DNA of 64,000 nucleotides. Source: an uncultured delta proteobacterium (GTDB lineage: Bacteria > Desulfobacterota > Syntrophobacteria > Syntrophobacterales > Syntrophobacteraceae). Under the pieces are notes generated by a model. It made no database searches, was not told where the DNA came from, and worked only from the letters and a program-made list of their open reading frames with translations. A program made the translations under genes and the position numbers. The stretch covers positions 1 through 64,000 of the forward strand of contig CAWEHK010000038.1 in assembly GCA_963808625.1 (NCBI GenBank), given 5' to 3'. Shown here one piece after another: positions 11,103 through 63,105 of this stretch (its first letter is position 1; the number at the start of each line of letters is the position of its first letter).

Positions 11103-12144
11103 TCACTGCGAAAAGCGATCGAACAAAGCTACTCTCGCCCTCTCGATCGCTCTGAGCACTTTAACCACCTGCACTTTAATGCCTAATTCGGCAAGGATGG
11201 GTGCGAGTGTTTCCTGAACTTCTTTCTTGGAGACCTGGACTTGTTGTGGCAGCGAATCACTCTTTTCAAGAAGTTTGCAAAAAGAGTCCCGGAACCCTGA
11301 GATGGGTGCAGCATGGGTAAGAAGCGAGGTGCCGAGCACATAACCTGAATTGTGTTCGGCAAAGAGCGCGATATGGGGGAAGAAGGGTCTGCCTTTTCCT
11401 TCTCGCACGGGCATTGGCGCAAAAGAGAGATCGGCTTCCCAGATTCTGCCGGGCTGAGGACTTTTCGTCTGGAGTCGCTGCAGGAGCAGTTTGTCTATCG
11501 GGATCGCTCCTTCTTCCTTCGGGACCTTCTTTTGGAGAGGGGCCGGTTTCATGTACGCCGTTGCCCAGGCCAGCCGGTCACCCTCAGTGCGTGGGACGCG
11601 GACCGGAAGCTGCCCTTTCTGGGTTGGTGTGAGGATGCGCTCGTCATCCTTCACCAGCAGGGCAACTTCCGATTGCCTGTTGGAGGGCGGTCCTGAGGAA
11701 TTGTGCTTCGCCTTTACCGAGATACCAGGGATAATAGCCCGGCACGTGGCTCCTGAAGGTCGGCCAGGCATTGCGCCCGCGAAATTTCAGGCCAAGCTGC
11801 TTGATCACCTTCAAATCCTGCGGGTCAAGCATCTGCCTGTCCTCAAAAGAGGCTACCAGACAGTCTTGGGTGAAGAGCGTATCGGCTCTTGCAACTTTCC
11901 CCGATTGAATGGCGCGATAGCCCTCCAGACCCTCCTCGCCCAAATAAACGCCGAGGCCAAAGAACTCACCGAGGTTGCCCATAACGCAGCAGTACCCAAT
12001 TTCTTCATTTGCCGGATTTTGCACGCCGAAAACCTGATCATCAACCATCCAGGTCCAGGCTTCTATTTTCTTGAACTCGACCGCGGCGGCGTACAGCTCT
12101 CTCCATTCCTGCAAAGTCGGCGTCGATTCGTCTATCATTCGCAT
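11103..12144 (-). CDS. Conserved hypothetical protein (one frameshift near 11680)
   Basis: Two protein-like ORF halves (WRELYAAAVEFKKIEAWTWM...GYCCVMG; WEADLSFAPMPVRE..RPFFPHIAL); GGAGG upstream. Confidence 0.7.
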
Positions 12145-12351
12145 CTACTTCCTCCTGCCTCTTCTTCCTTGCGGTTCCTGTTGAAGGTGCTCATACATCT
12201 CTTGACCAAGTCAGCTTCAGACCATAATGAGAGCAAGAAACGATTTCTTCGTGTGTCTTTGCAGTCCTTCGTGTGCCTTCGTGGACACGTTGGGGTCGAA
12301 GGGTTTCCGGTTGCTCTTGGTCGGTCCCTGATTGTCCGGAAACGGTTGTCG

Positions 12352-12957
12352 CTACAATTTCGGATCGGCTCCCTCGGTTGGCAGCCTGCTCGCTTCCTCC
12401 AACCAGAGGTTGCTGAGCTCAATCTCGATATCCTGAAACGGTTCGGCCCGGACCTTGTCATCTTCAGCATACAAGCCGGCCACCACCCAGGTGCCCGATT
12501 CGAGCCGGAAAACTTCCAGGGTCCTGGCTGCAGGATCAATAAGCCAGAAATATCCTACTCCGTGTTTCCCATAGAGGGGCATCTTCCTGATCTTATCCAC
12601 ACGGATGGTGCTGGGTGAGAGCACCTCACAGACCCAATCCGGAGGAACAGCAATCCAATTGGTCTCTTCATCCGTGGGAAATCGTTCCTTTCTCCATCCT
12701 GCCAGATCAGGAACCATAATATTTTGTCCGAGCTTGATTTCCGGCTCATAAAGAATGATCCATCCACCGGGTCCGCCACCGCGTCCGAACTGGTATGGCG
12801 GCATTACCTCAGCCCCCAGCACTGAGCCCGCATACACATGTTTCCTGGATGGTCGCGGGGTGACGATCAACTCCCCGTCAATGATTTCTCCGGTCATGTT
12901 CTCAGGAACACTGTACAGGTCGTCGTATGTCGCCTGCTTTCTTGCCAGCTCCGCCAT
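12352..12957 (-). CDS. Uma2/DUF820-family endonuclease
   Basis: GEIIDGELIVTPRP, PDLAGWR, PDWVCEVLSPST, YFWLIDP. Confidence 0.9.
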   Translation of the reverse strand: MAELARKQATYDDLYSVPENMTGEIIDGELIVTPRPSRKHVYAGSVLGAEVMPPYQFGRGGGPGGWIILYEPEIKLGQNIMVPDLAGWRKERFPTDEETNWIAVPPDWVCEVLSPSTIRVDKIRKMPLYGKHGVGYFWLIDPAARTLEVFRLESGTWVVAGLYAEDDKVRAEPFQDIEIELSNLWLEEASRLPTEGADPKL

Positions 12958-13655: not shown

Positions 13656-16600
13656 ATGGCCAAAGGGCGGCAAGCGAAACCCCAGGACAAAGAACCTGAG
13701 ACTTCCGTTATTGAACAGAGCGTCCGGATCATCACCGTGTTTGTCTCCTCCCCATCCGATACTTCGGCCGAGCGCGCGGTGTTGGAAGAAGTCTGCAAGT
13801 CAATCAACGACACCGACGGGCAGACCGGCGGGTTCCGCTTGGAGCTGTTCCGCTGGGAGCATGACGTGGCGCCAAAGGTCGGCCCCGGGCCGCAACCCGT
13901 TGTCGACGAGCAGACTCCGATCTACAACATCTACCTGGGGATCATGGCTACCCGCTTCGGGACGCCGACGGGTCGTTACGGCAGCGGCACGGAGAAGGAG
14001 TTTCGAGACGCCCTGGAGAGTTGGAAAGAGGCCGGCTCGCCGTGGATCATGTTCTATTTTGACGCCTCTCCAAAACTGACCGGCGATCCAGAACAGGCGA
14101 AACAGTTCGTGCGGGTCTGTAGATTTCGAGCTGAATTGGAGAAGCAGGGGATCTTGGCAACCTACTCGGAAGTGCGCGGCAGTGCCGCCGGATTCTTCGA
14201 GCAAGTCTCGATCCACCTGCGACAGATTGCGCAGCGCCTGCTACAGCAACAGGAACCCGAGCCGGGCCGCAAGCGCAAGAAAACGTGGCGATCAAAACCC
14301 ATCATTCCGCCTGCATACATCTCCTGGCTCCTCGGCTAGTGCGGTGAAGTGGACCTTATGGGGCTGCAGGTCAAACATGGGGCGGGTGTGCGGTTGAACC
14401 AGGTGTACACGCCGCTGGTCACCGCGATGCGACCTGACTGGCAGGGTGCTCCTCGCCGGAAGCGCGAGGAGAGAGCCTTGGTGGAAGGTCGCGAACCCGG
14501 CCGGTTGCTGCTGGATCTGCTGGCTGAGCAGTCGCTGTATGTTTCCGGCGATCCGGGTTCGGGGAAATCCACCTTTTGCCGGTGGGTGACCTGGCTCACG
14601 TGCAACGGCGCCATGCCATCCGTGGATGTGCCGCCGCCGGAACAATACCAGGAGAAATTTCCCGACCCTTTGCGCGGGCGGCTGCCGGTGCTGGTGCGGC
14701 TGCGGGACTTCTGGCCGCATCTCCCGGCTTCCGGTGCGCCGTCAATAGGTCTTGCGGGCCTGGAGCGCGCCCTGGAAAGATGGCTGTCCGAGGAAAAGCC
14801 TCCCGGCCTGGAATGGGTCAACCTGAAGGCTCACCTGGAAAACGGCTCGGCGATGCTGATGCTGGACGGCGTCGATGAAGTCCCGACCGAGCGCAGGGCG
14901 GGTGACGGCGATTGGTATCCGCGCGAAATGCTGCTCGAGGTGCTGGCCGAGGCGATCAAGCGGTGGACCAAAGCGGCAACCGGGTGCTGGTGACCAGCCG
15001 TCCCTACGGCGTGGACGCGAGCCGGCAACAGCGGCTCGGCCTCCTCCATGCTCCCATCCAGGGATTGGACCCGGAGCTGCAGAAGCTCCTGGTGCGCCGC
15101 TGGTTTGTGCGCCTCGACGAAAGCCCGGAGCGCGGCCTGGAAAAAGCCGACGCCATGATCGCTCACCTCCATCGGCGAACGCGCTCTGGATGAACTTGCC
15201 GCCAACCCGCTCCTGCTGACGGCGATGTGCATCATCTACGAGGAAGGCAAACGCCTGCCGGAGGACAAGTACGAGCTCTACAACCGCATCGTGGATACCG
15301 TCCTCCATAAACGCTACCCGGCGGTGAAGGAATCCGTGAGCCAGGTCCGCGGGCGCCTGGCCGCAATTGCCCTGGGCATGCATACCGGTGAAGGTCTGGG
15401 GCAGCAGCGCACCAACCCGGAAGCATCCGCCTCCGATCACGAAATCGACCTGCTGCTTGCAGAAGTACCGCCAGATCGATGGGTCAACGGATGAGGGGCT
15501 CCGGGATACGGTCCATGCGCGGGAGGACCTGCTCTCGAGGTCGGGCCTGCTGGTGCCGCGGGGTGACGGGCGGGCGTCGTTCTATCATCTGTCGTTTCAG
15601 GAGTTCATGGCGGCCGAACGCCTGGTCCTCGAACTTTCGAGAGCCACGGTTGTTCCAGCAGGAGTGTGAGGGCGACGGCTTTCCCAGTCTCCTCCTGGAG
15701 CGGGGGCAGGTTTCAGGCTGGCGGAACACCCTATCGTTTCTGTTCGGCTGCCTCGTGACCAAGTTCAGTCCGGATGTGGGGGCTGGACTCCTCCAGGCCG
15801 TCGTCAACCGCATGGAGATTCCCGAAGTGGACGTTTCCCAACGGGGGCAGACGGGTGGTTTCTGGAACCTGGCAATCGTCCTCGGCGACTGCCTGGAAAT
15901 TCTCGTCGGACGCAAATCAGCGGTGCCGCCGGAATTGCGCGAGTTTTTCCAGGATGTGGTGATGCGCGCCATCGAGCAGGAAATCGCGGTTAAAGATCGG
16001 CATACGCTGGCGGTGGCGTTGGGGCGCTTGGGGGATCCCCGCATTGTCAAGGATTTGCGGGTGCACGGCCATCCCGATGAGCACCCGGGTTACGTGAAGA
16101 TTCCGGCGGGAGATTACTATTACGGTGATGACAAGGAGCGGATTCACATCGATGAGCCGTTCTGGCTGTCGCGCTATCCGGTGACCAATTCGCAGTATGC
16201 GGTGTTCATGGACGAAAAGGGCTATGAAAGGCGCGAATTCTGGTCCGAAGGCGGGTGGCGTTGGCGCGAAAAAGAAAGAGTTCTGGAGCCGAGGTTTTGG
16301 CGTCATCCTGCCTTCAATGCTTCCAACCAGCCGGTGGTCGGGGTCTCGTGGTGGGAAGCGGAGGCTTTTACCAAATGGACCGGGGGAAAACTGCCCACCG
16401 AACGGCAATGGGAGGCGGCGGCGCGGGGTCCGCAGGGCTATGTTTATCCTTGGGGCGATGAGTGGGAGGATGGACTATGCAACAGCATGGAGGCTGGGCT
16501 GGGGGGCACTTCGGCAGTGGGCATATTCCCTCGGGATCGGTCGATGCCGTTCGGGGTGGAAGATATGGCGGGGAATGTGTGGGAGTGGTGTGCAGATGAG

Positions 16601-16856
16601 GTGGCCACGGTCCGGGTGATCCGGGGCGGCAGCTGGGGCTGCTCCGCCAGGGGCTGCCGGGCGGCGGACCGGACGCGGGAACGGGCCGTCCGACCGGGAC
16701 TACGATCTCGGCTTTCGTGTGGCCCCAGTTCCGTCTGGCGGGCAGGCAGGTTCCAGCAAGCCAGAGCGAACGGAGCCTGGAGTGGAGGCCGAGGGGGCGG
16801 AAGTGCGGAGCCCGCCCCCTCGCGCCGGAACGGAAGGCGGAGTGAGCGACAGGTAG
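13656..16856 (+). CDS. DGR target 1: DUF4062 - NACHT/STAND NTPase - FGE-sulfatase-like CLec domain (in-frame TAG at 14337 and indels)
   Basis: VFVSSPSD..AER, YLGIMATRFGTPT..SGTEKEF (DUF4062); GDPGSGKST Walker A and LMLDGVDEV Walker B; NPLLLTAMC; FYHLSFQEF; YPVTNSQY, LPTERQWEAAARG, DMAGNVWEWC, RVIRGGSW. Confidence 0.9.
16603..16734 (+). repeat. DGR variable repeat VR1
   Basis: Aligns to TR 18668-18798. By hand count about 12 substitutions fall at TR adenines (e.g. AAC>GGC, AAC>TGC, AGG>GGG, AAT>GAT), plus a 1-nt insertion near 16673. Confidence 0.95.
16790..16822 (+). promoter_or_regulatory. GC-rich hairpin downstream of VR1/IMH
   Basis: cgagggggcgg-aagtgcggagc-ccgccccctcg, 11-bp stem; same stem follows VR2. 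Confidence 0.75.
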
Positions 16857-16926
16857 AGGTGGAGATTGGTGGAGCAATGGCATAGTGTTTAGAGCCGAAG
16901 TTTGCACTCGTATGTCGGGCTGTTTT

Positions 16927-17016
16927 GGTGGGCACAAAAAGACTTGCCCACCCTACGATTTTGCGGAACCTTGGGCTGAGTGCAGTAGGGTGGGCACAGC
17001 TTCATCGTTCCCACCA
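16927..17016. repeat. GTAG-type REP pair (GTAGGGTGGGCAC family)
   Basis: ggtgggcacaaaaagacttgcccaccctac ... gtagggtgggcacagc...cccacc; same family near 26607-26692, 29629-29660 and 62740-62790. Confidence 0.75.
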
Positions 17017-17186
17017 AAGCTGGGTGATTATCTCCAGTACAATGAACCAGGGGGCCTCAGATCGTCATTCCCGCATGCTCCTGGCGGGAATCCAGGGCTT
17101 CGAGAAAGGTCGATGCCCCCACGGTTTGTGAGAAGTTGCGGTGTGGTCTTTTAACATATTGATATCATAAATAAATAAGCGATATC

Positions 17187-17678
17187 GTGGCCTTCAAATT
17201 CTTCATAATTCCAGTCCAGGGGTGGGAACATGCCGAGGACGAGCTGAACGCGTTCCTGCGCAACCACAAGGTCCTGGCCGTGGACCGGCGGTGGGTGGAC
17301 CAGGGGGCTAATTCGTTCTGGTCGTTCTGCGTGGATTACCTGGAGCGGGGTGCCGCTGGCGGGCCAGGCTCCCGTCAGCAGAAGGAACGCGAGAAGGTTG
17401 ATTACCGGGAGGTCCTGAGCCCCGAAGACTTCGCGATCTTCGCCAGGCTGCGCGAACTGCGGAAAGAAATCGCCCAGGCGGAAGCGGTTCCGGTTTACAC
17501 TATCTTTACCAACGAACAGTTGGCGCAAATGGTGCAATCGAAAGTGGCTACGAAAGCTGCCCTCGAGGGCATGGCCGGCGTTGGGGACGCGCGGATCGAG
17601 AAATACGGAGCCCGCATTCTGGCATTTTTGCAGCAGGAGTGGAAAGAAACGGGTGAAGCGGGCGGGAAATCTGTTTGA
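17187..17678 (+). CDS. HRDC-domain protein, DGR accessory factor
   Basis: FARLRELRKEIAQAEAVPVYTIFTNEQLAQMV...MAGVGDARIEKYG is an HRDC signature; overlaps the RT start. Confidence 0.88.
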   Translation: MAFKFFIIPVQGWEHAEDELNAFLRNHKVLAVDRRWVDQGANSFWSFCVDYLERGAAGGPGSRQQKEREKVDYREVLSPEDFAIFARLRELRKEIAQAEAVPVYTIFTNEQLAQMVQSKVATKAALEGMAGVGDARIEKYGARILAFLQQEWKETGEAGGKSV

Positions 17679-18668
17679 GCGAGTCATCGCTCGCGACAAC
17701 CTGCGCCTGGCCGTCGCCAGGGCGTTGCGTGGCAAACGGGACCGCGTGGAAGCCCGCCGCTTTGTCGCCCGCCTCGATGATCACCTCGAAAGCATGGCCC
17801 GGGAGCTTTCGGAAGGCCTGTTTCCGGTCGGAAGGTTTTCCCAGTTCGTCATTCACGATCCCAAAGAACGCATCATCACGGCGCCTTGCTTCGCCGAACG
17901 GGTCCTGCACCATGCCGTCATGAACGTCTGCGAGCCCAAGTTTGAACAGTGGCTCATCGATGACACCTACGCCTGCCGCGTCGGCCGCGGCCAAAGCGCG
18001 GCGCTTGTCCCGAGCACAAGAATTTGCACGGCGTTTTCCCTTCTTCCTGAAGATCGACGTCCGCAAGTACTTCGACAGCATCTCCCACGAGACCCTGCTG
18101 TCCCGGCTGCGGTTGCTCTTCAAAGATCGTCGGCTGCTGGACCTCTTCGAGCGGATCGTCCACAGTTTTCGCGGGAACCTTGGGCGGGGACTCCCCATTG
18201 GCAGCCTGACCTCGCAGCACCTGGCCAATTTCTACCTGGGCTGGTTCGACCGCTATGCCAAGGAGACCCTGCGCCTCAAGGGCTACGTCCGCTATATGGA
18301 TGATATGGCGCTTTGGGCCGATTCGGCTGCCACCCTCAAGACCGCCCTCGCCCTTGCCCGCGAACATCTTTGGGCGCAGCTCAGGCTGGAGCTCAAGGAT
18401 TATCCTTACATCAATCGCACGGAACACGGCATGAACTTTCTGGGATGCCGCGTTTTCTCGGACCGAATCACCCTGAATCGAGCGAGTCGCGTGCGCTTCA
18501 GGCGCAAGCTGGCGCCGGCTCGAGCAAGCGTTCCTGAGAGGTGAGATCGATGAGACCGAACTTCAGCGGCGAACGACCTCGCTTGTGGCTTTCACGCGAT
18601 CCGGCGGCGTAAAATCTTGGCATTTCCGGCGCGCAGTGCTACAAAAACTCCCGGTGAGCGACCTTTAG
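17653..18668 (+). CDS. DGR reverse transcriptase (two apparent frameshifts)
   Basis: GTG start MKRAGNLFE; DPKERIITAPCFAERVLHHAV; LKIDVRKYFDSISH; GLPIGSLTSQHLANFYL; YVRYMDD; NFLG; C-terminus ...LQKLPVSDL-TAG at 18666-18668. Confidence 0.95.
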
Positions 18669-18798
18669 GCCACGGACCGGGTGATCCGGGGCGGCAGCTG
18701 GAACAACTCCGCCAGGAACTGCCGTGCGGCGAACCGGAACAGGCACGAGCCGTCCTACCGGAGCGACAATCTCGGCTTCCGCGTGGCCCCAGCTCCGT
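18668..18798 (+). ncRNA. DGR template repeat (TR)
   Basis: AAC-rich copy of the VRs (tgg aac aac tcc gcc agg aac tgc cgt gcg gcg aac cgg aac agg...), outside any target gene and immediately 3' of RT. Confidence 0.93.
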
Positions 18799-18991
18799 GC
18801 ACAAGGTGGATTCGATTTCCATGTCAGCGCGGGTTCGAATGGTAAAGTCAAGCTCCGCGCGCAGGGTGGATGCCCAGCCGGACGGAACCGGCCGCTTTCC
18901 TGCCCCGCTTGGGCGGGCGAAATTAATGTCTGAGCCGTCCCCGTGCTGGTAGCGACCGTGAGCAGCGAGCCGCGAACGCTCGGGGCGGCCT
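18799..18991 (+). ncRNA. Putative structured 3' part of DGR RNA (spacer)
   Basis: Stem-forming segments gccccgc-ttgg-gcgggc and gccgtccccg...cggggcggc followed by ttt; position typical of the priming spacer. Confidence 0.5.
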
Positions 18992-19069
18992 TTCAATTCC
19001 AATGGTGAGATTAAGCAAACCTGTCAGGTTGAAATGTAGCAAACTCATCAGTTCCTGAAGGCAGCAGAG

Positions 19070-19919
19070 ATGAAGACACAACTCCTGAAGGAATGGCTCA
19101 AGGCCAAACATGTGGGGCAGGCTTTCCAGCCTGCCATTCACTGGCCGGAGTTCAGGTCCTTTACTAAGGAAGATCTGGGTGCGGTTGGTTTGTACCAAAG
19201 GAGGTTGCCTCACTGGGAATTGCAGGGTTCCACTTACTTTATCACTTTCAGAGTCCATGAGGGCCTGGGGAGGCCTTTGATCGGCAGCCTGAAAGATCCA
19301 GCCGACCTCCCTCAATTTCCTGCTCAGTCCAGCAAGCTGGAGAGCCAGACTATTACCCCTCAATATGATGATCAGGTTGGCAGGCTGGAAAGCCTGCTCC
19401 ACATAAGCCCGGAGTCCACAGTGTGGGGCAGGCTTTCCAGCCTGCCATCGGCCCAACTATCTTCTGAGGAACTATCCTGCTAACCAGCCATCCCATAACC
19501 AGCCATCCCATAACGAGCCATCTCATATCCAGACATCCTCCATACCGGCAACCATAGTTGAGGAAGCCTTATGGTTTGGCTACAAGAAAGGTATCTTCTG
19601 GATGCTTATGTCATCATGCCCGGACCACGTTCATCTGCTGCTCAGACCCTTGACCAATTGGAGACTTGCCAAAATCCTCAAGGGAATCAAAGGATTCACG
19701 GCAAGGGAGATCAACAGGGTCCTTGGTCGAAAGGGTCCCTTTTGGCAGGAGGAAAGTTTTGACCATTTGGTAAGGAATGATGGGGATTGGCTGGACAAGT
19801 TCGACTATATCCACAAGAATCCAGTGACTGCTGGACTGGTGGAGAGGCCGGAGGATTATCCTTTCAGCAGCTTGTGGCCATGCACAGCAAAGGCAGGCTG
19901 GAGAGTTTACAGCAGATAG
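19070..19919 (+). mobile_element. REP-associated tyrosine transposase (RAYT, Y1 HUH), disrupted
   Basis: RRLPHWELQGSTYFITFR; AYVIMP-DHVHLL (HUH); KGFTAREIN; FWQEESFDHLVR; YIHKNPV.AGLV..PEDYPFSS. Confidence 0.88.
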
Positions 19920-20019
19920 GAAAAGCAGGCTGGAAAGGCTGCTCTACATAAGGGAGTAGCTTTATCGCAGTGCAGGCCAAGATTGTTTACGGCATTGTGT
20001 CTGGAAAGCCTGCCCCACA
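19111..20019. repeat. REP family TGTGGGGCAGGCTTTCCAGCCTGCC, copies in and after the RAYT
   Basis: Copies at ~19111, 19379-19403 (inverted), 19422-19446, 19925-19948 and 20001-20019. Confidence 0.85.
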
Positions 20020-20059
20020 TTCGGGAGTAGCTTTTCGGAAGGGTATTAGGAGGGACCGC

Positions 20060-23000
20060 ATGGTAAAGCCGCCGAAACAGTTCGAGTCATCCGCATCTTT
20101 GTGTCCTCACCGGGGGATGTGGCGGAAGAGCGCGAGGTGCTGGACGAAGTGGTCGCGCGCATCAACCGGACCGATGGTCAAGCCGGGGGTTCGGCTTGAG
20201 GTGTGGAAATGGGAGACACACGTTGTTCCCCAAATCGGCCCGAAACCCCAGGGGGTGGTCGACAACCAGACGCCTGCTCACTATGACATCTACCTGGGCA
20301 TCATGAAGCACCGCTTCGGCACGCCGACGGAGCGATATGGCTCGGGCACCGAGAAGGAGTTCAATGACGCGCTGGAGCGCTGGGGAAAGGAGGGCTCTCC
20401 CTGGGTGCTTTTCTATTTCACTAAGGAAAAGGTGAACCATCATGAGCTGGATGACGGCCAGTACGAACAGTACTGCGGAAGGTTCGCATCAATTCCGCAA
20501 GAAGATTGGAGGAAATGGGGCTTCATGCGGCTTACGAGGGAGTCCGGGGATCGAACGAGGGGTTCTTTGAAAAGGTCGAGGAACATCTGCGGAAGCATCC
20601 TGCAATTGCTGGCGCCTCTTGGGCCCCAGGACGAAGACAAGCCTGTCGCCGATCCCACGGCCTACCTGCGCGATCTCCTCACGAAGACGGAATACATCGA
20701 CATCCGCGGCCTGCAGGTCGGGCAGGAGCGGGCTCATCGATTTCCCATTGAAGAGCTGTACATTTCGCTCACCACGACGCAGGCAGCGAGCCTGACGGCG
20801 ACCAGCCGATGAAAGGCGGGCGCAAAAGGGCGGACCATGGCCCGGAAATGGAACGTGCCCTTCCGCGAAACCCAGGCTTTGCCGCTGCACGAGGCGCTGC
20901 GCCATGAGCGGCTGGTCATAGTTGGCGATCCGGGTGCCGGGAAGACCACCTTCCTGCGCCGGGTTGCGCATGCCCTCTGCCAGACCGAGTTGGGCGACGC
21001 GCCCGATGCGGCCCTGGCCCGTGTCGGGATCAGCGAACGGACGTTTCCCATCCTGGTGCGGCTGAACGAATTGGATGAGCATATCTCGCGCCACCGAAAT
21101 GATCCGGCGGCTCCGACGGGGGAGGTCGCCGGCCTGGCTGCCGCATTACCTGGCGAAGACCAGCCTGGACAACAGACTGGGGGCTCGATGATGCCTTTTT
21201 CCGCCAGCAGCTGGAAGACGGCGGTTGCACCGTGCTGCTGGATGGCCTGGACGAGGCGGCGGATCGTGTTGCCCGCCAGCGACTCTCGCGGTTGATCGAG
21301 AACGTCGGCCCGGACCTATCGCGGTTGCCGCATGGTCGTGACCAGCCGGCCTGCGGGTTATACGGGGGAGGCGATCCTGCCCGATGTCGGGCATGGTCGG
21401 AGGAGCCTCGCCGGCTGGCGAGTTCGCCCGGTTTTCGCCCACGCTCGCATCGACCCGCTGTCCGACCAGGCGGTGGAGACCTTCCTTTCCCGTTGGTGCG
21501 AGGCGCTTTACGGTGAGAGCCCCGAGGCAGCGAAGCGACCACTGCTCGGAGTTGCTTTCGGCACTGAAGGCGCGGCCGGACATCCGCCGCATGGCGCGCA
21601 ATCCGGTGATGTTGACGGCCCTTGCGGTGGTGCACTGGAATGAACGCCGGCTGCCGGAGCAACGGGCCGATCTTTACGAATCGATCATCCGCTGGCTGTC
21701 GCGCTCCCGCGAGCAAAAGCCGGGACGCGAGAAGGCGGAGCGCGCCGTGGTTCTGCTGCAGGAACTGGCGCTGGCCATGCAGGACCATCCCGAAGGCATG
21801 CGCACGGAGGTCTCCAAACGCTGGGCGGCGGAAGCGATTGCCGGCGAATGGACGTCCGGAAAAGTTGACAAAGATGCCATCGCCGTTGCCGAAGCGTTCC
21901 TGGAAGCCGAGGAGCTGGACAGCGGCATTATCGTGGGCCGAGGAGAGAATGTGCGCTTCTGGCACCGAACTTTTCAGGAATTCCTGGCGGCCCGCGCCAT
22001 TGCGGCGCGCCCCGAAGCCGAAGCAGCAGGAGCTGCTGTGGAAATTGCGGCAAGACGCCTGCCCAGGCTCTACCTGCCGGAATGGCGGGAGGTCATCCTG
22101 CTGCTGGCCGGGATTCTTCACCAGCGGGGGCGGGCGACGGTTGATTATCTGGTGAAGACGATGATCAGATCGCGCAGGAGGTGAATGCTACACTGGCTGA
22201 ACAGGCGCGCTGTGCGGGTTTGATCGGCGCCATGCTGAGTGACCTGGCGCCGGTGGGGTATAGCCTCAGGACCACCAATACGAGGAGTTGCTGCATCGGG
22301 TCATGGGCATCTTCGACCGGGAGCGGTCGCAGAGCGTGCCCATCGAAACCCGCATCGAGGCGGCCGACGCTTTGGGGCAGGCGGGCGATACGCGGCTGGA
22401 TTTTCGGCCATCGTGACTACTGGGTGACGATTCCTGCGGGCGAGTTCTGGATGGGGGCGCAGGCCAGTGATCCGAAAGGTCGAAACTACGACTCTGAAGC
22501 ATACGAGGACGAAGCTCCGGTGCACAGGGTGCATTTGGATACCTATCGCATCGCCCGTTATCCGATTACGGTGGGGCAGTATCGGAAGTTTCTTGAGGAT
22601 GATGGATACAAAGAGGAGGATTGGTGGCAGGCGGGTGGATTCGGGAAGTTCTCCGAGCCAGAGAAGTGGGAAGATCAGTTGCAGTATCCCTCGCGCCCGG
22701 TGGTTTCGGTGAGTTGGTATGAAGCGGCGGCGTTTTGCCGGTGGGCCGGTTGCCGGTTGCTCACGGAAGCGGAATGGGAGCGGGCGGCGCGGGGGAGCGA
22801 CGGACGGAGATATCCCTGGGGAAATGAGGATGCTGACCCATCTCGCCTTAATTACAGCGATAGCGACATCGGTCATCCGACGCCGGTCGGCATTTATCCG
22901 CTCGGAAGCACGCCGGAAGGCATTTGCGATCTTGCCGGGAACATCTGGGAATGGTGTGCAGATTGGTATGGGGGTTATCCTGCTGAACGAGTAGCTAACC

Positions 23001-23219
23001 CATCTGGGACCTCAAAAGGCCTCGTACCGGGTGATCCGGGGCGGCAGCTGGTACGATGTCGCCAGGTACTGCCGGGCGGCGGTCCGGCACAGGGACGTGC
23101 CGTCCTACCGGGGCAACTATCTCGGCTTTCGCGTGGCCCCAGTTCCGTCTGGCGGGCAGGCAGGTTCAGGCAGGCCAGAGCGAACGGAGCCTGGAGTGCA
23201 GGCCGAGGGGGCGGAATAG
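20060..23219 (+). CDS. DGR target 2: DUF4062 - NACHT/STAND NTPase - FGE-sulfatase-like CLec domain (frameshifted)
   Basis: YDIYLGIMKHRFGTPTERYGSGTEKEF; GDPGAGKTT; LLDGLDE; NPVMLTALA; FWHRTFQEF; LLTEAEWERAARG; DLAGNIWEWC; RGGSWYDVARYCRAAVRHRDVPSYRGNYLGFRVA. Confidence 0.9.
23018..23148 (+). repeat. DGR variable repeat VR2
   Basis: Gap-free 131-bp alignment to TR; about 10 substitutions at TR adenines (AAC>TAC twice, AAC>GTC, AAC>CAC, GAG>GTG, AAT>TAT). Confidence 0.95.
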
Positions 23220-23236
23220 CGGAGCCCGCCCCCTCG
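23204..23236 (+). promoter_or_regulatory. GC-rich hairpin downstream of VR2/IMH
   Basis: cgagggggcgg-aatagcggagc-ccgccccctcg; the target-2 stop codon lies in the loop. Confidence 0.75.
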
Positions 23237-23448
23237 CGCCGGAACGGAAGGCGGAGTGAGCGGTAGGGAGTTGTCCAAAGATAAGACGCCTGCTTTTACC
23301 ACGAAGAGCACGAAGACCACGAAGGACAGGAAGTGATTTCTTCGTGGTCTTCGTGTCCTTCGTGGTTTGAAACAGGGTCGAAATAAGAGCACGTTATTTT
23401 TGGACAAGCCCTAATACTACAACGATATTTTAGGAAAGGTTCAAACTG

Positions 23449-23516
23449 TGTGGGGCAGGCTTTCCAGCCTGCCATGCCGAACTGGCTAAAAGGCAGGCTG
23501 GAAAGCCTGCCCCACA
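23449..23516. repeat. REP doublet (REPIN) of the RAYT-associated family
   Basis: tgtggggcaggctttccagcctgcc ... ggcaggctggaaagcctgccccaca. Confidence 0.85.
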
Positions 23517-23561
23517 CGGCTTGGAGCTTCAACAAAGTACCATTGGAGTACAAAGCAGCTG

Positions 23562-29855: not shown

Positions 29856-30139
29856 TTGATGGTTGATGGTGGATAGTTGATGGTTGATAGTTGATGGTTG
29901 ATAGTTGATGGTTGATGGGGATGTTGATCGGTGACTGGTTATGAGCTCCAAGCCATGAATGGAGGGGATTAACAGTCTTTCCTTTCGGGAATGGTATATA
30001 TTGCCCTGGGGTTCGACTCCAAAAGGCCGAGACCAAGCATCGAAAACCAACAGCCACGAACCATGAACCATGAGCCATTTTGTCCATCAACCATCAACCA
30101 TCAACCATCAACCATCAACTATCAACCATCAACCATCAA
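29856..30139. repeat. Inverted heptamer arrays (TTGATGG)n ... (CCATCAA)n
   Basis: Array at 29856-29918 and its reverse complement at 30083-30139, in the divergent mutS/uvrA intergenic region. Confidence 0.85.
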
Positions 30140-30162
30140 CATCTCTAAAAGGAGCCAATCGT

Positions 30163-36513
<6,351 letters not shown>

Positions 36514-37414: not shown

Positions 37415-37700
37415 AGGACCAGTTTGCTTTTAAACCGGGGCAAAAACCCTCTTTCAAGCCCTCCACGAACAACAACCCTTCCATCGAGCTCACTTTGAGT
37501 CGATCTGCGCATCATCCCCACCTCGACGGTGTCACACCGTGGTGGTGGCTGCTTCAATTACCAAGGAATCGGCACACAAATGGGCAGAAAATGAGCCAAG
37601 ATGCACCTTGACAGGATCGAAGACACATGCTATCCGAAATGCGCCAGAAAGCAATTTCCTGTCATCTCTTCAATCTATCATTGGGTGCAAGGGGGCCATC

Positions 37701-39647
37701 ATGAAATCCATGTTTCATTTTCAAAAACCCAATAAGAAAAGTCCCTCATGGAAGAGAGGCTTGGCGCTGGTGTCTGGGACCATGCTGGCGTTAACTCTAG
37801 TGAGCGCTCTGTCCACTATGGCTCACAATTCCGCATGGGCGAACTCATCAAATGACTGTACGATTTACCGCGAGGTCTTCCCTATTCTCAACACCGGAGG
37901 GACCACCCCCAAGGACATCGTCTTCATCCAGAAATGGTACGGGGAGCAACATGGCAGCGCCATTGTCGACGCCGCCAGTCAGGATCTCCAGCGATTGGAT
38001 AACGGGCTGGCGCCGGAAATGCAGCCGGTCGATTCGAACCCCGTCGGGAATCTGGTCCCGAACACGGGCGGCGCCTTCTACTCGCCAAGCGCGGTTGCGG
38101 GCATCTACATTTTTACGGATGAGTTCAGTGCGGACGTCTCGACGCTGCGCAGGGTGCGTTTCGACTCCCGCAACAACGGTTGTTCGACCTTCGTGCAGCA
38201 GAACTCAACAAGCTGCCAGAAGGTCTATTACGACTCACCGACCAACTCGCAGCTCAACTTTGACCCCGCGGCGCAATCCGCCATGCATGTCGCGTTGCGG
38301 ATCGGCACCACGTGGTACATCGCCGAGCAGGTCCTGGAGCAGTCCGCTTACAACCCTGCCACCACCCCTGGAGGCGACCCAAAGGACCCGATCTGGCAAA
38401 CCCATACCTTTGATTTCGCAGGAAAGACGTTCTTGATCGCCAACAGCTACGACGAGGCCCCTGGCGGTGAGTGCGAGAGCACGGTCCCCAACTGCCTGCC
38501 ACGCGAGAACGGACCGTCCGGACAGACTCTCCCGTTGAGCGGCACAGTCAACGGCATCGGCATCTGGATCGAGAAGAACCAACCGGCACCGAGGCTCCCG
38601 AGCGGAACCTCCGCGACGCTGCGCATTGACAATTTCGAGGTCCGCTCTGACGTTTGTGACGACGGCAATCCTTGCACCGCCGACAGCTGCAACCCAACGA
38701 CGGGTGAATGTGTGTACACACCGGTCAACGTGGATGACAACAACGCCTGCACCACGGACGCCTGCGATCCGGCGACCGGTAATATCAGCCACACCCCCAT
38801 CAACTGCGACGACAACAACGCGTGTACCGCCGACAGCTGCAACCCAACGACGGGTGAATGTGTGTACACACCGGTCAACGTGGATGACAACAACGCCTGC
38901 ACCACGGACGCCTGCGATCCGGCGACCGGCATCAGCCACACCCCCGTCAACTGCGACGACAACAACGCGTGTACCAACGACAGTTGCGATCCAGCGACGG
39001 GCTGCACGCACACACCGGTCAACGTGGATGACAACAACGTCTGCACCACGGACGCCTGCGATCCGGCGACCGGCATCAGCCACACCCCCGTCACTTGCGA
39101 CGACAAAAACGCGTGTACAACGGACAGTTGTGATGCGGTGTTGGGATGCGTGTACACCCCGATCTCCTGCACCGACGGAAACGCCTGTACGAACGACACG
39201 TGCGATCCTGCGTCGGGCTGCGTGTACACGCCGGTGTCCTTGATCTGCGACATCACGGCACCCGAAAAGGTGGACTTCGGCTCCACGGGGAACGTGGCAT
39301 CCACGACACCCGGGTATGCCCAATACCAGTGGGTGATCTACGTGGATGATTTGAGCAACCCGGATCCGTCTCTCATCACGGCGGGACAGAACACCCAGCA
39401 GATCACCTTCAGCGCGCCGGCATCGTTCACGGTCCTCAAGATCGGCGTAGTGGCGACAACAGACCAGGGATGTCAGTGTATCAATGATCCGGGCGTCTCA
39501 GGCGACCCGAAAGAAGGGCATGACGTGTACCCCAATCAGGCTATTCCTGTGCCGACCCTTTCCGAGCGAGGTGTGATCCTTTTCCTGCTGCTCCTGGGAG
39601 TGACGGCAATTGTGACACTGCGTCGGAGAGGTCATGTTGAACGCTAA
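37701..39647 (+). CDS. Secreted Cys-rich repeat protein with IPTL-CTERM-like sorting signal
   Basis: Signal peptide; eight ~24-aa (C/V)DDNNACTxDxCDPxxGxxxTP repeats; C-terminal IPVPTLSERGVILFLLLLGVTAIVTLRRR. Confidence 0.85.
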   Translation: MKSMFHFQKPNKKSPSWKRGLALVSGTMLALTLVSALSTMAHNSAWANSSNDCTIYREVFPILNTGGTTPKDIVFIQKWYGEQHGSAIVDAASQDLQRLDNGLAPEMQPVDSNPVGNLVPNTGGAFYSPSAVAGIYIFTDEFSADVSTLRRVRFDSRNNGCSTFVQQNSTSCQKVYYDSPTNSQLNFDPAAQSAMHVALRIGTTWYIAEQVLEQSAYNPATTPGGDPKDPIWQTHTFDFAGKTFLIANSYDEAPGGECESTVPNCLPRENGPSGQTLPLSGTVNGIGIWIEKNQPAPRLPSGTSATLRIDNFEVRSDVCDDGNPCTADSCNPTTGECVYTPVNVDDNNACTTDACDPATGNISHTPINCDDNNACTADSCNPTTGECVYTPVNVDDNNACTTDACDPATGISHTPVNCDDNNACTNDSCDPATGCTHTPVNVDDNNVCTTDACDPATGISHTPVTCDDKNACTTDSCDAVLGCVYTPISCTDGNACTNDTCDPASGCVYTPVSLICDITAPEKVDFGSTGNVASTTPGYAQYQWVIYVDDLSNPDPSLITAGQNTQQITFSAPASFTVLKIGVVATTDQGCQCINDPGVSGDPKEGHDVYPNQAIPVPTLSERGVILFLLLLGVTAIVTLRRRGHVER

Positions 39648-39891: not shown

Positions 39892-40194
39892 TCAGGATTC
39901 ACGGCGCCGTGTGGCATGAGGCTCAAGGGTCAGATCGAGTGCGCGGCAGCAGCGGCCGGTGTCCGAAATCTGAATTTCCACGTGGCCCTCTTCCATCCTG
40001 CTGATAATGCCAAGACGTTTCTCGGTCATCCCCTGCATGGCGTGACTCTGTTGCAACTGCTCCACAACGTCGCCGATCAGGTCGTTAACGTTGGCGGGCT
40101 CTCGATAGGGTCTCCCCGAGGTTTTCAGTTCGATCGGGTTTTTTACCATCTTCTCCAGTCCAGCGATTTCCGTGATGATGATCCGTAGGTACAT
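39892..40194 (-). pseudogene. Decayed histidine kinase ATPase-domain fragment
   Basis: EPANVNDLI...HAMQGM..KRLGI..VEIQISDTG; internally deleted. Confidence 0.5.
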
Positions 40195-40261
40195 CCTGTT
40201 GGGGTCGCCTTCCCCAAGGTTCTCGTTGGCATCTAACTCATCGGTGTCACAAGAAGGAATT

Positions 40262-41908
<1,647 letters not shown>

Positions 41909-62729: not shown

Positions 62730-63105
62730 CTGTCCAAAAGGGTAGGCTGTGCCCACGCATGGAGCAGCATGTGGGCAGAGCCCACCCTTGGTACAAAATG
62801 GCAAACTTGTTTTTGGACGGTCACTTAGAGACTATCTCAAAACTGGCTTACCCCGTCACCCCGGCGGAAGCCGGGGTCCGGGAATTCCCAAGAAAAACTG
62901 GATTCCGGCTTTCGCCGGAATGACGATCAACGGCGCTTTGATCATTTTGAGATAGTATCCTTAGTACTACAACGTTACTTTGGTGACGGTCCAAGCGATG
63001 TGGGGCAGGCTTTCCAGCCTGCCAGGCCAAATTGGCCAAAAGGCAGGCTGGAAAGCCTGCCCCACAAATTGAGGCCCCAGGTGGAAACCTCGTTGTAGTA
63101 TTAGG
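62730..63105. repeat. Three adjacent nested repeat units, including a REPIN at 63000-63066
   Basis: ctgtccaaaa..ttttggacgg around a GTGGGCA pair; actatctcaaaa..ttttgagatagt around gtcaccccggcggaagccgg..ccggctttcgccggaatgac; tactacaacg..cgttgtagta around the RAYT-family REP doublet. Confidence 0.8.

Follow-up and report, generated by a model that had tools for sequence, protein, structure and literature searches.

A diversity-generating retroelement with an HRDC accessory gene, flanked by candidate NLR-like receptor genes, in a Syntrophobacteraceae-like sulfate reducer

The stretch analysed here (the window) comprises 64,000 nucleotides of contig CAWEHK010000038.1 from an uncultured delta proteobacterium (assembly GCA_963808625.1), and coordinates are positions in the window unless a contig or locus handle is prefixed. 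At 13656-23219, all on the plus strand, two genes for large multidomain proteins (target 1, 13656-16856; target 2, 20060-23219) flank a diversity-generating retroelement (DGR) consisting of an HRDC-domain accessory gene, a reverse transcriptase (RT) gene and a template repeat (TR). The locus is probably, though well short of certainly, an HRDC-type DGR whose targets are cytoplasmic defence receptors resembling nucleotide-binding, leucine-rich-repeat proteins (NLRs) with an NADase output, the breaks in these genes being mostly assembly errors.

The host is a Syntrophobacteraceae-like sulfate reducer. An earlier note on this DNA, made from the letters alone, had placed it in a deltaproteobacterium, and this was borne out by the RNase II gene beside the locus, whose named homologues are mostly from Syntrophobacteraceae (including Desulfoferrobacter and Desulfacinum), and by a dsrA match above cut-off in the host genome.

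Organisation and adenine bias of the retroelement

Target 1 starts at an ATG (13656) preceded by AAAGGA, which resembles a ribosome-binding site, and ends at a TAG (16854-16856), encoding a protein of about 1,060 codons. The first variable repeat (VR1, 16603-16734, with one extra base near 16674) carries the initiation of mutagenic homology (IMH) at its 3' end. The intact HRDC-domain gene (17187-17678; PF00570, E 4.5e-18) is followed by the RT gene (17653-18668; RVT_1, E 2.7e-10; YMDD at 18293-18304), which is interrupted by two internal +1 frameshifts near 18004 and 18512, and the RT stop coincides with the start of the TR (18668-18798), which contains six AAY (Asn) codons and the IMH*. Target 2, a divergent paralogue, carries VR2 with its IMH at 23018-23148.

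Relative to the TR, VR1 carries changes at 13 of the 24 adenines, against 8 of the 107 other bases (Fisher p 8e-7); the corresponding figures for VR2 are 10 of 24 and 9 of 107 (Fisher p 2e-4). A C/T difference marks the IMH at 18793 in all five VRs that match this TR (the two in the window and three elsewhere in the assembly, described below), and it recurs at the same place in a planctomycete cassette (L149). TR codons with A at position 1 or 2 fall on high-entropy columns of the protein family (on average 3.3 bits for 15 such codons, against 1.3 bits for the 22 others; p 3e-6; 94 homologues).

Each VR is followed by an element of about 115 nt with a 10-bp GC hairpin that is absent after the TR (target 1, 16735-16850, hairpin 16790-16799/16813-16822; target 2, 23149-23263, hairpin 23204-23213/23227-23236; repeat family D7, 91% identity). 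Five targets and an orphan copy share the element. Its conservation is at the DNA level, with stop codons at varying positions within it, and it is thus probably a cis signal. The hairpin is paired in 95% of cells with one compensatory change, covariation that does not exceed shuffles (158 of 500 reach it), and its fold scored z -2.2, versus +0.5 after the TR. The TR region itself folds no better than shuffles (z +2.1), and Rfam gave no match in the window. The orphan copy (C50:164715-164819, L163) is 91% identical and has no VR in front of it.

Domain architecture of the target proteins

In target 1, a DUF4062/NIR domain with a TIR-like fold (13716-14255) is followed by a NACHT/STAND (ATPases of signal transduction that have numerous domains) module (14529-15630), a helical region and an FGE-subtype C-type-lectin (CLec) domain (16085-16734). 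The NACHT motifs comprise Walker A (GDPGSGKST, 14547-14573), Walker B (LDGVDE, 14862-14879), sensor-1 (VTSRP, 14990-15004), a GxP-like motif (NPLLLT, 15204-15221) and a winged-helix motif (HLSFQEF, 15586-15606), and all motifs of target 1 are likewise present in target 2, which has the same DUF4062/NIR - NACHT - FGE/CLec order. The motifs that the earlier note had listed (DUF4062-like, P-loop, LDGxDE, NPxxLT, HxxFQEF and FGE with the VR) are thus present in target 1 at the place it gave, and in target 2.

The hidden Markov model searches proposed in that note gave a strong FGE-sulfatase result (Pfam, on fragments; E 2.3e-42 in target 1, PF03781, and E 1.6e-50 in target 2) and a DUF4062 match (PF13271) in target 1 over residues 28-119 (E 8.5e-5, 23.1 bits), just below the 24.7-bit cut-off, which the close homologues P0003 (27.7 bits) and P0008 (27.1 bits) exceed. 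NACHT was detected on fragments at the Walker A region with scores under the cut-off, and on the intact homologue P0001 at 31.5 bits (cut-off 26.7). The NIR domain also matches PADLOC candidate PDC-S60 (E 3e-34).

Full-length alignment shows target 1 to be colinear with P0001 (734 identities in 1,040 columns), and target 2 matches P0081 over its whole length (625 identities in 1,065 columns). The homologue search used the N-terminal 445 codons as query and kept longer proteins only, which placed split forms outside its scope; it returned 192 matches among 7,999 candidates. NACHT and FGE occur together in 115 of the 120 homologues listed, 51 of these also having DUF4062 (counted by eye). In 10 of the 120, a SIR2-like (6) or TIR (4) domain stands beside NACHT-FGE, mostly replacing DUF4062, which indicates that other NADases fill the effector slot. 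Intact homologues are single proteins of about 1,000 aa that fold as TIR-like, NLR and TvpA-like domains. The effector-STAND-CLec architecture proposed from the window is therefore supported by these homologues and by the fold of P0001; its three parts lie on one protein in the homologues, and in the window as assembled neither target is one reading frame.

The AlphaFold model of the window N-domain (79-row alignment) has a predicted local distance difference test score (pLDDT) of 93.5, and its first eight VIA-align matches are TIR domains (Z 10.0-11.0), with deoxyribosyltransferases and MilB close behind. A predicted catalytic glutamate, Glu115 (codon 13998-14000), lies in the helix after the third strand within SGTEKEF (13983-14003; family motif SGTxxE); it is present in both targets and in 83 of the 92 rows having a residue there, in a conservation alignment of 94 members chosen from the 120 listed homologues. 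By position, rather than by an alignment, it would be equivalent to E108 of PsAvs2. The full-length P0001 model (pLDDT 91.2) matches NLRC4 in its middle part (Z 18.3 over 436 residues), as well as NLRP3 and NOD2, and at its C-terminus TvpA (2y3c; Z 24.1, root-mean-square deviation 2.1, 196 residues), as well as EgtB/FGE, Mtd and TaqVP. VR2 aligns without gaps to the VR at the TvpA C-terminus (E 7.8e-6), and the VR is in register with those of TvpA and Mtd. Variable residues of TvpA are reported, in the accessible part of that source, to be solvent-exposed (10.1101/432187), and those of the present targets are predicted to be so from TvpA and TaqVP. A 19-residue hydropathy scan found no membrane segment in either target (no window above 1.6; maxima 1.41 and 1.29), in keeping with the earlier remark that none was evident, and both proteins are predicted to be cytoplasmic.

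Further targets in the assembly and distribution in other genomes

Three further DUF4062-NACHT-FGE genes in the same assembly (C37:68329-71482, C12:43441-46576 and C33:94400-97552) have VRs matching the window TR, with changes at 16 of 23, 13 of 24 and 18 of 24 adenines and 6, 16 and 21 other differences, respectively, and all three have the same 3' element as the window targets. Judged from these repeats, at least three genes outside the window have also been acted on by the cassette. A fourth paralogue (C13:7122-8205) contains a TAG and ends after Walker A.

A second DGR lies on the minus strand of C43 (89576-99900, L165), with an Avd-like gene, an unbroken RT gene, a TR that has 12 AAY codons, and two NACHT-FGE targets whose differences from it are almost confined to adenines. 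It holds the only Avd-like gene in the assembly; the window accessory gene is of the HRDC type. One of its targets has an apparent metallophosphoesterase head, and an open reading frame (ORF) resembling an insertion-sequence transposase lies inside the locus. On the same contig, an HRDC-only remnant stands between two further DUF4062-NACHT-FGE genes (C43:57909-65384, L164), a third such gene being at C37:140636-143537. FGE-tipped genes with mutually similar VR-like ends were seen at C43:57909-65384, C37:140636-143537, C50:60839-63719, C30:7950-8728 and C43:143721-144719, and no TR or RT matching this set was found in the 85%-complete assembly. At C17:17890-19711 and C21:57826-59781, DUF4062-like NACHT genes have C-terminal parts that do not align to FGE.

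The system recurs outside this assembly. An intact counterpart of the cassette (L149) is in a Pirellulaceae metagenome-assembled genome (G042, which also holds locus L036) and has the order HRDC-RT-TR-target, the target being an open 1,047-codon NIR-NACHT-FGE frame. Its VR and TR disagree at 12 of 26 adenines and, elsewhere, at a single base (the IMH C/T described above); for a remote target of G042 the count is 15 of 26 adenines plus that IMH base. The window RT shares 198 identities in 308 columns with the intact L149 RT. That an independent genome has such a cassette, its repeats differing at nothing but adenines and the IMH base, supports the reading of DGR-diversified NLR-like proteins. 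HRDC homologues were found in 8 of 401 planctomycete genomes, and in 8 of the 9 loci an RT gene follows immediately. In two planctomycete homologues (L035:648-4842 and L036:8058-11744), extra sequence is inserted between the NIR and NACHT domains; in L035, where a truncated HRDC start lies 3' of the target, this insertion looks CHAT-like by eye.

A metagenome scan gave 67 loci from mostly short contigs, which provide no frequency estimate; five have NIR or near-full-length close matches (L037-L039, L042, L055), and six have an RT in the retrieved DNA, all beside more distant NACHT-FGE genes. In L037 (12914-13470), an intact NIR-NACHT-FGE gene is followed by a clean TR, from which its VR differs at 11 of 26 adenines and 0 of 105 other bases; no RT or accessory gene lies within 10 kb, so this TR is probably served in trans. 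Among viral contigs, 34 loci match parts of the target, none over its whole length, and none matches the HRDC gene.

Among 40 relatives of the host, no full-length target was found; two have NIR-region fragments, and the other matches are short FGE proteins. The RT was matched in two of the 40, one with an Avd-like neighbour. The lack of a full-length target in these relatives suggests a recent horizontal gain of the system in the host.

Drift of the template

The TR was compared with seven independent HRDC-DGR templates, and seven of its bases are not adenine here but are adenine in at least four of the seven. At those bases, 19 of 34 comparisons of the five VRs with the TR show a difference, compared with 61 of 99 at true adenines and 28 of 345 at other bases, although the p-value of this comparison is overstated because the five VRs are related. 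The concentration of mismatches at the lost-adenine bases points to VRs written by a more A-rich template. The TR accordingly shows signs of having lost adenines since the VRs were written; this drift argues that the cassette has not recently overwritten its targets, and it may now be slow or dormant. The present TR would allow about 4e11 protein variants over a 32-codon core, versus 7e11 to 2e18 in the other templates. Because the C43 DGR of this assembly is clean, substitution errors were rejected as an explanation for the mismatches at bases other than adenine.

Differences of the non-A-to-N type are given for 23% of DGRs in the accessible part of Wu et al. 2018 (PMC5758913), so the drift seen here has precedents. 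An unlikely reading is that the template rewrites itself, mutagenised cDNA homing back onto the TR and ratcheting it to lower diversity. The simpler readings are point mutations of the usual kind in an ageing TR, replacement of the TR, or a consensus of mixed strains. No report of TR self-mutagenesis was found in a literature search that fell short of most subscription papers. If self-rewriting did occur, it would progressively freeze a genome-wide repertoire of NADase-armed NLR-like proteins and so act as a brake on self-reactive receptors.

Proposed mechanism

By the mechanism of known DGRs, the RT would copy TR RNA with errors at adenines, and the cDNA would replace the VR, guided by the IMH and the downstream hairpin. 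Mapped by homology, these errors would randomise some 15 positions on the binding face of the CLec domain. Once this face binds a foreign molecule (a phage protein being the likeliest ligand), the NACHT switch would be released, leading to oligomerisation as in NLRs and Avs proteins, and the clustered DUF4062/NIR heads, if they behave like those of PsAvs2 and Swarozyc, would hydrolyse NAD+ and arrest the infected cell. Diversification of the receptors by the RT, as the earlier note had it, is supported by the TR/VR adenine bias (13/24 and 10/24 adenines) and by the intact homologues. The NADase activity that it suggested for the N-domain finds its evidence in other DUF4062 domains (2026 preprints), and the fold and glutamate seen here make the target domain a predicted NADase.

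Integrity of the genes and alternative readings

As measured against P0001, target 1 has frameshifts near 14970, 15173, 15456, 15640 and 16676, four of the five being +1, besides an in-frame TAG (14337-14339) directly 3' of the NIR domain and linker, which is either a nonsense change or a base-call error; target 2 has 13 frameshifts relative to P0081. Other genes of the assembly are also broken: rpoB has nine frameshifts over 1,375 codons, rpoC has two in a part of 479 codons, and two ribosomal protein genes have one each. Among control genes, 43 of 61 frameshifts are +1. Since rpoB is equally broken and target 1 keeps all 122 columns conserved at 90% or more (homologue median 119), assembly error is likely, and the targets are probably single open frames in the organism, with most breaks arising as long-read assembly errors.

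Several observations weigh against the reading of the locus as diversified, NADase-armed defence receptors broken mostly by assembly. No target reading frame is intact as assembled. The control rate is only 0.59 frameshifts per kb (61 in 103 kb, with 61 of 89 control genes unbroken), and the targets and paralogues have 1.6-4 per kb, target 2 being at about 4 and the C37 and C12 paralogues having nine frameshifts each; the C13 paralogue is truncated. The TAG at 14337 has no counterpart, and as the five control stops inspected, of nine, all lay outside true coding sequence, it is not typical noise. VR1 and VR2 carry 8 and 9 non-adenine differences, and control DGRs, including the second one in the assembly, 0-1 outside the IMH end. 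The DUF4062 match of the window lies below the Pfam cut-off, and Foldseek placed small-GTPase and flavodoxin folds above TIR for the N-domain, a result that is not decisive. STAND-CLec proteins are called uncharacterised in the accessible text of Doré et al. 2024 (PMC10907252), and neither a defence phenotype nor a ligand is known for CLec-tipped STANDs in the literature searched.

The alternative that survives best, while still unlikely, is a decaying relic in which the DGR no longer works and at least one of the two targets is a true pseudogene, possibly owing to the toxicity of self-reactive variants. The TAG, the 13 frameshifts of target 2, the transposase between TR and target 2, the non-adenine drift between TR and VRs, the broken C13 paralogue and the HRDC-only remnant on C43 all fit decay. 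They are opposed by the full set of conserved columns in target 1, by the excess of frameshifts over stops in the two targets (18 against one, mostly +1 like the assembly-wide spectrum), and by the Kdp kinase gene in the window, which itself has eight frameshifts in 623 columns.

Rather less probable is a signalling receptor for host or partner molecules rather than phage, in which NIR makes an ADP-ribose-type signal or acts as a scaffold without killing. The missing defence phenotype would suit it, a scan of flanking genes (Kdp, DUF7309/DUF6930, Uma2, RNase II) recognised none known to act in defence, and such roles have been proposed for cyanobacterial DGR targets (cited in the accessible text of PMC10907252). 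Set against this are the depletion of NAD+ in antiphage defence by every DUF4062 system characterised in the accessible parts of three 2026 preprints, the patchy distribution with no full-length target in the 40 relatives, and the exchange of the effector slot with SIR2 and TIR.

It is highly improbable that target 1 really comprises two genes, one for a free NIR protein (227 aa) that ends at the TAG and one for a NACHT-CLec sensor starting at GTG 14349, or that the stop is read through. The stop does fall directly after the NIR domain and a flexible linker in the model, with an in-frame GTG nine bases past it, but all aligned close homologues and paralogues have a sense codon there and, in the P0001 model, the position of the stop is within the helix that opens the NACHT module. 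Separate genes as a rule of the family were rejected, on a homologue search that covered longer proteins only.

Database names (SUMF1/EgtB/PvdO in the source; top sequence and fold matches EgtB, OvsA and FGE) imply that the C-terminal domain generates formylglycine or is an enzyme like EgtB. This is largely refuted, with next to no probability left, since the segment that holds the catalytic cysteines of FGE, in the C-terminal loop, coincides with the hypervariable VR (its single Cys kept in 48 of 88 rows) and NCBIfam scores are far under their cut-offs; enzyme identity was rejected on these grounds.

Relation to known systems

Both the architecture and its interpretation are already in print (Kaur et al. 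2021; Doré et al. 2024). The accessible parts of Kaur et al. 2021 (PMC8195603) describe an association of DGRs with STAND-FGS proteins whose heads are TIR, DRHyd or calcineurin, and propose adaptive-like sensing of invaders. Their 'DrHyd+NACHT+FGS' has the same three domains as the window targets, the DrHyd rows bear DUF4062 deflines (supplementary file 1), and DrHyd+NACHT occurs 24 times, once in a genome of the Desulfuromonadales (deltaproteobacteria); several copies per genome are found, as in the present host. The accessory protein there is the four-helix Avd and 'HRDC' is absent from all 12 supplementary files searched, of 13, whereas it is HRDC here, and, unlike the present analysis, the parts seen contain no TR/VR analysis.

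Doré et al. 2024 describe, in their accessible text, two-target STAND-CLec DGRs with remote targets and degenerate loci and state that the proteins are uncharacterised. Their clade 5D DGRs (Thiohalocapsa DGR 3 and 6) have two targets, a central NACHT and a single CLec, as here; remote targets, degenerate loci, insertions of transposons or MITEs (miniature transposable elements with inverted repeats) and predicted antigen sensing are also shared. Their hosts are mostly multicellular, the likeness to clade 5D rests on target architecture, and their main text, in the part seen, makes no mention of DUF4062, HRDC or 'Syntroph-'. The accessible part of Kibby et al. (10.1101/2022.07.19.500537) defines an 'FGS antigen-receptor type' of NACHT protein (NACHT plus FGS sensor, like the present targets), proposes its diversification by DGRs, lists DrHyd among NAD+-targeting effectors and states that 24% of deltaproteobacteria encode NACHT proteins; that part contains no test of an FGS-type member. 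Likewise, the part seen of a 2026 survey places FGE sensors among defence-associated STANDs and contains no test of them (10.64898/2026.01.04.697583).

For the effector, DUF4062 depletes NAD+ in a Glu-dependent manner in PsAvs2 and Swarozyc (10.64898/2026.09.04.749371; 10.64898/2026.05.01.722283), and PsAvs2, Swarozyc, Vulcan, Vesta and Evangelion (the same two preprints and 10.64898/2026.06.25.731849) share with the present targets a TIR-like fold and a conserved Glu; in PsAvs2, NIR/DUF4062 is fused to a STAND NTPase, as here. According to the portions of these preprints available, the sensors of NIR/DUF4062 NADase systems are TPR, HEAT or auxiliary domains, whereas here the sensor is FGE/CLec, and the main texts, so far as available, make no mention of FGE, sulfatase or retroelement. 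For the cassette, HRDC accessory genes occur in 14 of 372 DGRs in the accessible part of Wu et al. 2018 (PMC5758913), and the FGE-type CLec, remote targets and IMH with a GC-rich inverted repeat described there, for Treponema denticola TvpA and HRDC-type DGRs, are shared; TvpA is a surface lipoprotein, whereas here the CLec tips a cytoplasmic NTPase of 1,000 residues.

A literature search, with most subscription papers beyond its scope, found no experimental test of a DGR-diversified STAND-CLec. It found no paper that joins the NIR NADase result to DGR targets, nor any that joins the DUF4062-NACHT-FGE architecture to an HRDC cassette, though bioRxiv supplements or the Doré datasets may do so in either case. 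New here are a likely NADase output, the cassette of HRDC type, its host, how large the repertoire is, the drifting template, the three further genes and the second DGR.

Neighbouring features in the window

Fragments of a REP-associated tyrosine transposase (RAYT; REP, repetitive extragenic palindrome) lie between TR and target 2 (19070-19919; NF047646, E 2.3e-21, under the cut-off) with REP-like palindromes (repeat family D13), and RAYT fragments and the scattered palindrome family were seen at 19070-19963, 23409-23555 and 62959-63066. Directly upstream of target 1 and divergent from it, the minus strand at 11103-12957 encodes a putative endonuclease (Uma2) and, in two overlapping frames, a DUF7309/DUF6930 protein. 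Several UvrA-like genes sharing repeats D3, D5, D8 and D9 lie at 30070-36513 and 40172-41908, with 7-bp tandem spacers in that region at 31002-31179 and 33457-33610, and a long ORF at 37539-39647 contains 72-75-nt repeats coding Cys/Asp-rich units.

Significance

Whether bacteria hold an antibody-like, pre-diversified repertoire of intracellular receptors is an open question that has been raised in the literature. A CLec sensor diversified by a DGR and joined to a DUF4062 head of NADase type would be a single-gene system with a simple readout (loss of NAD+), and the family is therefore a good test case. The window locus, broken as assembled, would be a poor reagent, and the intact L149 cassette a better one. 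The present locus extends the system to a Syntrophobacteraceae-like sulfate reducer that holds an unusually large receptor set, full-length members of which are absent from the 40 relatives.

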